Origin: Escherichia phage vb_EcoM_bov9_1
Reading direction: 5' to 3' (one strand)
DNA length: 64,000 nt
Sequence record: MT884006.2
The notes under the pieces are model-generated. The model worked only from the letters and a program-made list of their open reading frames with translations. It ran no database searches and had not been told where the DNA came from. A program made the translations under genes and the position numbers. Positions within the stretch are counted from its first letter, which is position 1. The number at the start of each line of letters is the position of its first letter. This document shows positions 56,908 to 60,972 of the stretch, piece after piece.

Positions 56908-59900
56908 ATGGCTACTTTAAAACAAATACAATTTAAAAGAAGCAAAACTGCAGGAGCACGTCCTGCCGCTTCAGTATTAGCCGAAGGTGAATTGGCTATA
57001 AACTTAAAAGACCGTGTACTTTTTACTAAAGATGACCAAGGAAATATTATTGATCTGGGTTTTGCTAAAGGCGGTAGCATTGACGGGAATGTTATTCATA
57101 TAGGAAACTATAATCAAACTGGTGATTATACTTTAAATGGCACCTTCACTCAGACAGGTAATTTTAATTTAACTGGTATTGCTCGAGTAACTCGCGATAT
57201 TATTGCCGCCGGGCAGATTATGACTGAAGGCGGAGAACTTATTACAAAAAGTTCAGGTACAGCACATGTTCGTTTTTTCGATGGCAATAGTCGCGAACGT
57301 GGAATCATTTATGCCCCGGCTAATGACGGTTTAACTACACAAGTACTTAATATCAGGGTTCAAGACTACGCCGCTGGTGATGAAAGCACCTATGCATTTT
57401 CGGGCAGTGGACTATTTACTTCACCTGAAGTATCAGCATGGAAATCTATTTCGTCTCCGCAAATTCTGACTGATAAAGTTATTACAAATGGGAAGAAGAC
57501 CGGCGATTATGATATCTATTCATTAGCAAATAACACTCCATTGGCAGAAAGCAAAACGGCTATTAACCACCTCCGTGTTATGCGAAATGCCGTAGGATCT
57601 GGTATATTCCATGAAGTTAAAGATAACGACGGGATAACCTGGTACGCCGGTGATGGGTTAGATGCCTATCTTTGGTCGTTTACCTGGTCCGGTGGATTGA
57701 AAGCAGGCCATTCTATTTCTGTTGGTACTCCTGGTGGCAATAAAGGATACTCTGAATTAGGGACTGCTTCAATTTCTCTTGGTGATAATGATACTGGATT
57801 TAAATGGCATCAGGATGGATATTTCCATACAGTAAACAACGGAACAAGAACTTTCATTTACGGTCCTGCGGAAACACAAAGCCTTAGAAAAATGGTTATG
57901 GGTTATTCTCCGGATGGTGTTCTTATGACAACGCCACCGACAGAAAACTATGCTTTGGCTACTGTTGTTACTTACCATGATAATAATGCATACGGCGATG
58001 GTCAAACACTTTTAGGATATTATCAAGGTGGTAATTACCATCATTATTTTCGCGGTAAGGGTACTACAAACATTAATACTCACGGCGGTTTGTTAGTTAC
58101 TCCAGGTAATATTGATGTTATTGGCGGTTCTGTTAATATCGATGGTAGAAATAATGCTTCTACACTGATGTTTAGAGGTAACACAACTGGTAGTAGTTCA
58201 GTTGATAATATGACAATTTCCGTTTGGGGCAATACGTTTACTAATCCTAGTGTAGGTAATCGTAAAAACGTCATGGAAATTTCTGATGCAACTAGCTGGA
58301 TGAGTTATATTCAAAGACTTACTACTGGCGAAGTAGAAATGAACGTTAATGGTTCATTTGAATCATCTGGTGTTACTGCTGGAGATAGAGGAGTTCACAC
58401 AACAGGTGAAATTTCATCTGGAGCAGTGAATGCTCTTCGTATTTGGAACGCAGATTATGGAGCCATTTTTAGACGTTCAGAAGGAAGTCTTCATATTATT
58501 CCAACTGCTTATGGCGAAGGCAAAGATGGCGATATTGGTCCACTTCGCCCATTTAGTATGGCTTTAGATACTGGTAAAGTTACTATTCCAGATTTACAAT
58601 CAAGTTACAATACGTTCGCTGCTAACGGTTATATTAAATTTGTTGGTCATGGAGCGGGTGCCGGCGGTTATGACATTCAATATGCTCAAGCGGCTCCTAT
58701 TTTCCAGGAAATTGATGATGATGCTGTAAGCAAATATTATCCTATTGTTAAACAGAAGTTTTTAAACGGTAAATCTGTTTGGTCTTTAGGTACCGAAATT
58801 GAATCAGGTACATTCGTTATTCATCATCTGAAAGAAGATGGTTCACAAGGCCATACATCAAGATTTAATATGGATGGTACAGTTAATTTCCCTGATAATG
58901 TTCTGGTCGGTGGTGGTGAAGCTGCTATTGCTCGTAATGGTAATATTTTCTCGGATATTTGGAAAACGTTTACTTCTGCAGGCGACGTAACTAATATTCG
59001 CGATGCAATAGCTACTCGTGTTGCCAAAGAAGGTGATACGATGACCGGCACTCTTTGGATTAATAAAGATGCTGCTGGAATAGTTCTTAATCCTCCTTTG
59101 GCCAGTGATTCATCATTTATTCGTTCCGATACGGCCGGGGTCAATAATTGGTATATTGGTAAAGGCGGTGCCGACAATGGTCTAGGTTTTTACAGTTATG
59201 TTACACAAGGCGGTGTATATATAACAAATAACGGAGAAATATCACTTTCTCCTCAAGGACAAGGAACATTTAATTTTAATAGAGACCGCCTCCATATAAA
59301 CGGTACACAATGGACCGCACATCAAGCTGGTGACTGGGCTAACCAATGGCGTCAAGAAGCACCGGTATTTGTAGATTTTGGTAATGTCGGTAATGATAGT
59401 TATTATCCTATTATTAAAGGAAAATCCGGTATTACTGATGAAGGATACATATCTGGTGTAGATTTTGGTATGCGACGCATTACTAATACATGGGCACAAG
59501 GTATTATCCGTGTAGGTAATCAGGAAAACGGTTCCGACCCACAAGCTATCTATGAATTTCACTCTAATGGTACTTTTTATGCTCCGAGCTTACTTAAGAG
59601 CGGTAGAGTATCAGCTGGTGGTGGTGACCCTGCATGGGGCGGGCCGTGTATTGTACTTGGAGATAACGATACCGGTTTGCTTTGGGAAAACGATGGTATT
59701 TTCAACGCATATGCAAACGGCCAAGGTGTGTTTAGTTTTAGACCTGGTTTAGCTCAGACATTCGGTGATGTTAACTTCCACTGTAATGCAGGTATGTATG
59801 TTCGTGATAACATTGATGTTAACGACGTTTATATTCGTTCTGATATTCGTTGTAAGTCGGAAATTAAGCTTATTAAGAACGCTCAAGAGAAATCTAAACT

Positions 59901-60159
59901 ATTGGGCGGTTATACTTATCTGGTTAAAAACTCTGTTACAGACGAAGTTAAACCGTCCGCAGGTTTAATTGCTCAGGAAGTTCAAGAAGTATTACCTGAA
60001 CTTGTTTCTGAAGATAAAGAGACCGGACTGCTTCGTTTGAACTATAACGGTATTATTGGTTTAAATACAGCTACAATCAACGAGCATACAGATGAAATCA
60101 AGGAATTGAAATCTGAAATTGCTGAATTGAAAGCATTAATTAAATCATTGATAAAATAA
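56908..60159 (+). CDS. 37: Long tail fibre distal subunit gp37 (1083 aa) with C-terminal chaperone-like domain
   Basis: 1083 aa; N-terminus conserved with T-even gp37; C-terminal coiled-coil plus SDIRCK motif region. Confidence 0.9.
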   Translation: MATLKQIQFKRSKTAGARPAASVLAEGELAINLKDRVLFTKDDQGNIIDLGFAKGGSIDGNVIHIGNYNQTGDYTLNGTFTQTGNFNLTGIARVTRDIIAAGQIMTEGGELITKSSGTAHVRFFDGNSRERGIIYAPANDGLTTQVLNIRVQDYAAGDESTYAFSGSGLFTSPEVSAWKSISSPQILTDKVITNGKKTGDYDIYSLANNTPLAESKTAINHLRVMRNAVGSGIFHEVKDNDGITWYAGDGLDAYLWSFTWSGGLKAGHSISVGTPGGNKGYSELGTASISLGDNDTGFKWHQDGYFHTVNNGTRTFIYGPAETQSLRKMVMGYSPDGVLMTTPPTENYALATVVTYHDNNAYGDGQTLLGYYQGGNYHHYFRGKGTTNINTHGGLLVTPGNIDVIGGSVNIDGRNNASTLMFRGNTTGSSSVDNMTISVWGNTFTNPSVGNRKNVMEISDATSWMSYIQRLTTGEVEMNVNGSFESSGVTAGDRGVHTTGEISSGAVNALRIWNADYGAIFRRSEGSLHIIPTAYGEGKDGDIGPLRPFSMALDTGKVTIPDLQSSYNTFAANGYIKFVGHGAGAGGYDIQYAQAAPIFQEIDDDAVSKYYPIVKQKFLNGKSVWSLGTEIESGTFVIHHLKEDGSQGHTSRFNMDGTVNFPDNVLVGGGEAAIARNGNIFSDIWKTFTSAGDVTNIRDAIATRVAKEGDTMTGTLWINKDAAGIVLNPPLASDSSFIRSDTAGVNNWYIGKGGADNGLGFYSYVTQGGVYITNNGEISLSPQGQGTFNFNRDRLHINGTQWTAHQAGDWANQWRQEAPVFVDFGNVGNDSYYPIIKGKSGITDEGYISGVDFGMRRITNTWAQGIIRVGNQENGSDPQAIYEFHSNGTFYAPSLLKSGRVSAGGGDPAWGGPCIVLGDNDTGLLWENDGIFNAYANGQGVFSFRPGLAQTFGDVNFHCNAGMYVRDNIDVNDVYIRSDIRCKSEIKLIKNAQEKSKLLGGYTYLVKNSVTDEVKPSAGLIAQEVQEVLPELVSEDKETGLLRLNYNGIIGLNTATINEHTDEIKELKSEIAELKALIKSLIK

Positions 60160-60162
60160 TAA

Positions 60163-60972
<810 letters not shown>

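Follow-up and report, generated by a model that had tools for sequence, protein, structure and literature searches.

The distal long-tail-fibre protein gp37 of Escherichia phage vb_EcoM_bov9_1 ends in an intramolecular chaperone domain of the peptidase S74 family (Ser978-Lys1083). The reading that this domain is self-cleaved after trimerisation, and that the new end thus formed docks the adhesin gp38, is supported, and we put its probability at about 92%.

The window analysed is a stretch of 64,000 nucleotides of this phage (MT884006.2). According to its ORF list, the region around gp37 is the long-tail-fibre operon of a T-even phage, in the order gp34 (1290 aa), gp35 (371 aa), gp36 (218 aa), gp37 (1083 aa), gp38 (260 aa) and holin t. 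The 1 kb around the gp37 C-terminus shares 100% DNA identity with Escherichia phage vb_EcoM_bov10K1 (MT884007.2), a Tequatrovirus, and the phage studied here is a Tequatrovirus as well. A CDS of the same span as gp37 is labelled "hypothetical protein" in MT884007.2; this product is the distal fibre subunit gp37. Two plus-strand ORFs in other frames, 59552..59752 and 59765..59968, were dismissed because the gene that contains them has its strong homology in the gp37 frame. The features discussed below are collected in Table 1.

Table 1. Features of the gp37-gp38 region, with positions in the window and the basis of each assignment
Feature	Position	Strand	Basis
Gene 37, long tail fibre distal subunit precursor, 1083 aa, ~116.7 kDa	56908..60159	+	ORF and MT884007.2 CDS of the same span
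DVYIR, aa 973-977, last residues of the predicted mature gp37, presumed gp38 docking strand	59824..59838	+	Identical to fPS junction; T2 has NVYIR
Predicted scissile bond Arg977/Ser978	59836..59841	+	S16 alignment; same place relative to the dyad as T5 Thr1263-Ser1264
C-terminal intramolecular chaperone domain, peptidase S74, aa 978-1083, 106 aa, ~11.7 kDa	59839..60156	+	Pfam PF13884, PDB 6F45_A, AlphaFold2/Foldseek
Ser978, predicted nucleophile	59839..59841	+	Conservation; S16 and 7DC3 columns
Lys983, predicted general base of the Ser-Lys dyad	59854..59856	+	Conservation; T5-like spacing
Conserved core motif GLIAQEVQEVLPELV, aa 1019-1033	59962..60006	+	Homologue alignment
C-terminal amphipathic helix, aa 1046-1082, predicted trimeric coiled coil	60043..60153	+	AlphaFold2 helix; heptad test
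Intercistronic hairpin with 6-bp stem and UUCG loop, after the gp37 stops and before the gp38 ribosome-binding site	60164..60179	+	Sequence; context, outside the protein mechanism
Gene 38, T2/S16-type polyglycine adhesin, predicted from S16 to dock on and cap the matured gp37 tip	60190..60972	+	Pfam GP38; PDB 6F45_D, 9V85
gp38 N-terminal attachment domain, aa 1-42, with Trp9, Trp22 and Trp37	60190..60315	+	Pfam Gp38_N; Trp alignment

The gp37 tail belongs to the peptidase S74 family

The original prediction had likened the end of gp37 to the autoproteolytic chaperone domains of other fibres and spikes, and had proposed a profile search for the S74 domain as a check. This search was positive. 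Pfam Peptidase_S74 (PF13884, "chaperone of endosialidase"), whose curated gathering score is 22 bits, matched aa 978-1033 with 44.1 bits (E 2.5e-11) when the whole of gp37 was searched and with 48.7 bits (E 9.6e-13) when the last 150 aa were used. The alignment covers profile positions 1-57 of 58, and position 1 falls on Ser978, the serine of SDIRCK. Similarly, the last 200 aa of gp37 matched PDB 6F45_A ("long tail fiber distal subunit", a gp37 construct of Salmonella phage S16, present in three copies in the entry) with E 1.9e-31, in an alignment that runs collinearly from SD..K through GLIAQEV..LP.LV and LNYNG to the terminal helix. Together with the fold match described below, these scores place the proposed resemblance far above chance. 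That the SD..K string and the heptads might be a coincidental likeness in an unrelated fibre end can be dismissed, being refuted by the Pfam (E 1e-12), 6F45 (E 2e-31) and Foldseek matches and contradicted by the 1512 phage records in which tblastn matched the domain.

The three strings on which the prediction was built are all present in the gp37 frame: NFHCNAGMYVRDN at aa 956-968, SDIRCK at aa 978-983 (nt 59839-59856) and IKELKSEIAELKALIKSLIK at aa 1064-1083 (nt 60097-60156). The junction reads ...DVYIR-SDIRCK..., and the domain that follows forms the extreme C-terminus of the protein, running to the gp37 stop codon. The proposed tail thus lies where it was placed, but its length of about 120 residues had to be revised: position 59785 is codon 960, from which 124 residues remain, and the domain proper comprises 106 residues, starting 18 residues downstream at Ser978. 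The 18 residues upstream of Ser978 are assigned to the mature fibre tip.

The domain has a Ser-x4-Lys dyad (Ser978 and Lys983) at its N-terminal edge. When 68 diverse homologues are aligned, the position of Ser978 is Ser in 65/68, Asp979 is found in 65/67 and Lys983 in 66/68. Further downstream, G1019, A1022, Q1023, P1030 and Y1046 do not vary at all, L1020, I1021 and V1033 are each kept in 67/68, and E1031 occurs in 63/68. Within the dyad motif Cys982 is unusual, most homologues having Leu. Ser978 aligns with the first Ser of the S16 SDRRIK. When the profile of homologues was compared with the PDB, it also recovered the ICA domain of MyRF (7DC3, E 1e-12), where the MyRF chain has Ala (of ADLRAK) in the Ser978 column followed by the conserved Lys, and the tail fibre in 8JOV (E 3e-12). 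S16, MyRF and the 8JOV fibre were the only matches at E <= 0.01 in the PDB sequence and profile searches, in which the K1F and T5 chaperones gave no match at this threshold.

When a database was searched with the last 130 aa of gp37, 125 proteins matched; almost all of the listed ones already carried a PF13884 annotation. Many homologues are short (121-226 aa) "tail fiber domain-containing proteins". The idea that the chaperone is a separate gene in some phages was rejected: the 170-aa L003 product lies inside one continuous gp37 ORF of 1101 aa, so the short homologues are taken to be truncated gene calls.

A compact fold with a long terminal helix

The AlphaFold2 monomer model of the last 130 aa of gp37 (pLDDT 93.6, pTM 0.80) consists of a small alpha-beta part followed by a helix of 37-38 residues (model residues 93-129). 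Searching the PDB with this model using Foldseek yielded only 7DC3, 3GW6 and 3GUD at a probability of at least 0.84. The best structural match was the MyRF ICA (7DC3; TM 0.74, rmsd 3.1 A), and the K1F endosialidase intramolecular chaperone (3GW6) was matched partially, with a TM of 0.47-0.58 and a high rmsd. The GA-1 chaperone (3GUD) was also recovered. The K1F and GA-1 chaperones were thus reached by fold and not by sequence search. In the model, only about 17 residues, including two 3-residue strands, separate the LPELV helix from the terminal helix. This compactness and the shortness of the intervening stretch are probably why MyRF fits better and 3GW6 fits only in part.

The terminal helix carries a genuine heptad pattern, as had been proposed from the sequence. 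In the best register over aa 1046-1082, the a positions are I,I,I,I,I and the d positions Y,N,H,L,L,L, so that 8/11 core positions are hydrophobic; only 0.7% of shuffles of the same residues score as well (p = 0.007), and the pattern coincides with the helix of the AlphaFold2 model. These observations are consistent with terminal helices that pair into a trimeric coiled coil.

Predicted cleavage and docking of gp38

The downstream gene encodes an adhesin of the T2/S16 type. gp38 matched Pfam GP38 with E 2.6e-72 and Gp38_N with E 1.7e-20 over aa 1-42, S16 gp38 (PDB 6F45_D) with E 4.4e-51, and the gp38 of PDB 9V85, to which it is nearly identical, with E 1.5e-137; it is 52% identical to T2 gp38. 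Its Trp9, Trp22 and Trp37 all align with tryptophans in the gp38 of both S16 and T2. In S16, such conserved tryptophans act as prongs that insert into pockets of the gp37 end (PMC7917993). Scored within a 51-nt context, the hairpin between the two genes did not surpass shuffled sequences (z = -0.76).

By homology to S16, T2, T5 and K1F, we infer that trimerisation, cleavage and docking proceed as follows. gp37 would be made as a 1083-aa precursor in which Ser978-Lys1083 acts as the S74 intramolecular chaperone. Three copies of the chaperone would associate, and a trimeric coiled coil would arise from their long C-terminal helices. This association would bring the three chains into register and start the folding of the fibre tip at its C-terminal end. 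After correct trimerisation of the tip, Ser978, activated by Lys983, would attack the Arg977-Ser978 bond in each chain, and the chaperone trimer would fall off. Judging from the gp37 translation, from which the masses were derived, mature gp37 is expected to comprise 977 aa (~104.9 kDa) and the detached piece 106 aa (~11.7 kDa); as the cut is expected N-terminal to Ser978, the serine would leave with the chaperone. The new C-terminal surface (...DVYIR) would then serve as the docking site for the Trp-bearing N-terminal domain of gp38.

Two other explanations accept the S74 domain. In the first, the domain is an S74-type trimerisation module that has lost its cleavage activity and remains part of the virion, where it caps the fibre, with gp38 binding elsewhere. 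The unusual Cys982 and the very short tentacle hairpin would fit such a retained cap. However, as described for S16 in PMC7917993, the chaperone occupies the very surface on which gp38 docks, and the gp38 encoded here keeps its docking tryptophans. The junction is also near-identical to that of T2, and in the account given in PMC3157838 (citing Drexler, Riede & Henning 1986) gp37 of T2 and T6 is C-terminally cleaved and then capped by gp38. Moreover, the Ser-Asp-x3-Lys motif is intact and conserved, and we regard a retained cap as very improbable.

In the second explanation, the tail is removed by a separate host or phage protease and not by its own Ser-Lys dyad. The predicted cut follows an arginine, which would also suit a trypsin-like protease, and the 1986 work on T2 gp37 reportedly did not establish autocatalysis. 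Against this, the residue before the cut varies among homologues (Ser in S16, Thr in T5), leaving the Ser after the bond as the common element. In T5 pb1, Lys1269 activates Ser1264, the cut falls between Thr1263 and Ser1264, and S1264A blocks cleavage; the homologous domain self-cleaves when expressed alone in E. coli, which a Ser-to-Ala change stops (PMC4690869). S16 gp37 is likewise described as autocleaved: its last 113 residues form the intramolecular chaperone, and the cut at DLNVS^SDRRIKK exposes the gp38 docking surface (PMC7917993). A separate protease is, in our estimate, just as hard to credit as a retained cap, because the dyad is intact and the junction nearly that of T2.

Self-cleavage by the S74 domain after trimerisation remains the preferred reading. 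One may further speculate that this compact T2-type chaperone, nearly devoid of tentacle hairpins, is mainly a removable placeholder that masks DVYIR until the chains have trimerised and whose release then sets the moment of gp38 docking, and that the 11.7-kDa coiled-coil trimer, once set free, might have some additional function in the infected cell. We think this improbable, and no observation made here requires either a placeholder or a further role.

Meaning and comparison with known systems

The S74 chaperone tail of this gp37 is an ordinary member of a well-described and already known system. It brings little new biology. Reports of C-terminal processing in T2-type gp37 date back to 1986, and the S16 S74 chaperone was described in 2018. 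Its practical value lies in annotation and engineering. When receptor-binding modules are swapped or recombinant fibres designed, the predicted Arg977/Ser978 junction should be taken as the mature C-terminus. Constructs for recombinant fibres should retain aa 978-1083 for folding and co-express gp38.

Among the systems nearest to this one is S16, with a structure (PDB 6F45; Dunne et al. 2018) that is summarised in PMC7917993. The two phages share the location of the domain at the fibre tip, the S-D-x-x-x-K junction, the GLIAQEV..LP.LV core, LNYNG and the terminal amphipathic helix, followed downstream by a polyglycine gp38 with a Trp-bearing N-terminal attachment domain. They differ in the tip before the cut, which is DLNVS in S16 and DVYIR here, and in the released piece (113 aa vs 106 aa here), and the residues before the cut are largely unrelated except for a GDNDTGL.W..DGI motif. 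The Yersinia T4-like fPS phages, with the junction DVYIR^SDGRLKI (PMC7917993), have the same five-residue end as the gp37 studied here.

T2 gp37 (AP018813, 1341 aa) has a nearly identical junction, NVYIR-SDIRLKS vs DVYIR-SDIRCKS, and an S74 match at its C-terminus (aa 1243-1300), and T2 gp38 has the same N-terminal Trp pattern. However, T2 gp37 is longer than the 1083 residues found here, the chaperone of T2 measures 99 aa and ends in a shorter helix, and identity over the last 160 aa of gp37 is only 37%.

The T5 and K1F chaperones share with the present domain the Ser-x4-Lys dyad (a spacing of 5, as in T5 Ser1264/Lys1269) and a mixed alpha-beta part; a triple coiled coil at the C-terminus, a cut on the N-terminal side of Ser and release once the trimer has folded would be common to them as well. 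In K1F and T5, the mechanism includes a folding-sensor Arg supplied by the neighbouring chain of the mature part, and we know of no adhesin that docks on the new end in either phage. Both chaperones are longer and have beta-hairpin tentacles of about 40 residues, unlike the stretch of about 17 residues here. In T5, the 133-aa chaperone has a C-terminal coiled coil, and its 40-residue tentacle hairpins embrace the mature domain (PMC4690869).

The MyRF ICA (7DC3), the best structural match, also has its dyad columns aligned with those of gp37 in the homologue profile. MyRF is a eukaryotic membrane-bound transcription factor whose cleavage frees a DNA-binding fragment, and its product differs in this from a phage fibre.

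T4, lastly, carries its gp37 and gp38 genes in the same positions of the same fibre operon. Its gp37 has its own receptor-binding tip and is folded with the help of gp38 and gp57A as separate chaperones; the gp38 of T4 and that of the adhesin type are unrelated (PMC3157838). To judge by its sequence, the fibre tip described here is of the T2 type and not of the T4 type.

Distribution of the chaperone and the gp38 adhesin

The C-terminal chaperone domain of gp37 has matches in 1512 phage records; protein identity to the window chaperone reached at least 95% in only 43 of them, TH40 included. JS98 shares 88% DNA identity with the window over 1 kb around the chaperone, and, among the matches listed, several further T-even phages of Escherichia and Shigella showed about 60% identity in the chaperone comparison. 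These uneven identities point to T-even lineages having swapped the module formed by the gp37 end and gp38. PDB 9V85 holds a GFP-gp38 fusion whose gp38 portion is ~97% identical to residues 39-260 of the downstream adhesin (E 1.5e-137), so the structure of essentially the same adhesin has already been solved.

Gene models, labels and the intercistronic stretch

Public "tail fiber domain-containing proteins" of 121-183 aa (P0001-P0007) comprise only the C-terminal piece of gp37. A split gp37 gene was considered for one such locus (L003; GCA_021537435.1, 3208..6513) and rejected, since the DNA holds a single unbroken ORF of 1101 aa; the short proteins are thus a gene-calling artefact. In phage vb_EcoM_bov10K1 (MT884007.2), gp37 (CDS 152909..156160, equivalent to window 56908..60159) is deposited as "hypothetical protein" and gp38 as "tail fibers protein"; both could be given precise names. 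Between the two genes in the window, the gp38 ribosome-binding site directly follows a UUCG hairpin, whose folding in its 51-nt context was not better than that of shuffles (z = -0.76).

Features of the gp37-gp38 region
Feature	Window position	Detail
gp37	56908..60159 (+)	1083 aa
LGDNDTG(F/L)xWxxDG, copy 1	~57781	aa 292-305
Gp34_trimer (PF21446)	~58255..58557	aa 450-550
LGDNDTG(F/L)xWxxDG, copy 2	~59659	aa 918-931
Chaperone	59839..60156 (+)	aa 978-1083
Tandem stops, gp37 end	within 60157..60189	TAA TAA
Hairpin	60164..60179	perfect 6 bp, UUCG tetraloop, -12.3 kcal/mol
gp38 ribosome-binding site		GGAGG
gp38	60190..60972 (+)	260 aa

Repeats and domains within gp37

Pfam Gp34_trimer matched gp37 at 31.4 bits (cut-off, 27 bits); this domain, named for the proximal fibre subunit, is also present in gp37 of phage T2. 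The LGDNDTG(F/L)xWxxDG motif is present twice, and Salmonella phage S16 gp37 likewise carries it, just upstream of the chaperone; together, these copies suggest that the distal fibre contains a repeated structural unit.
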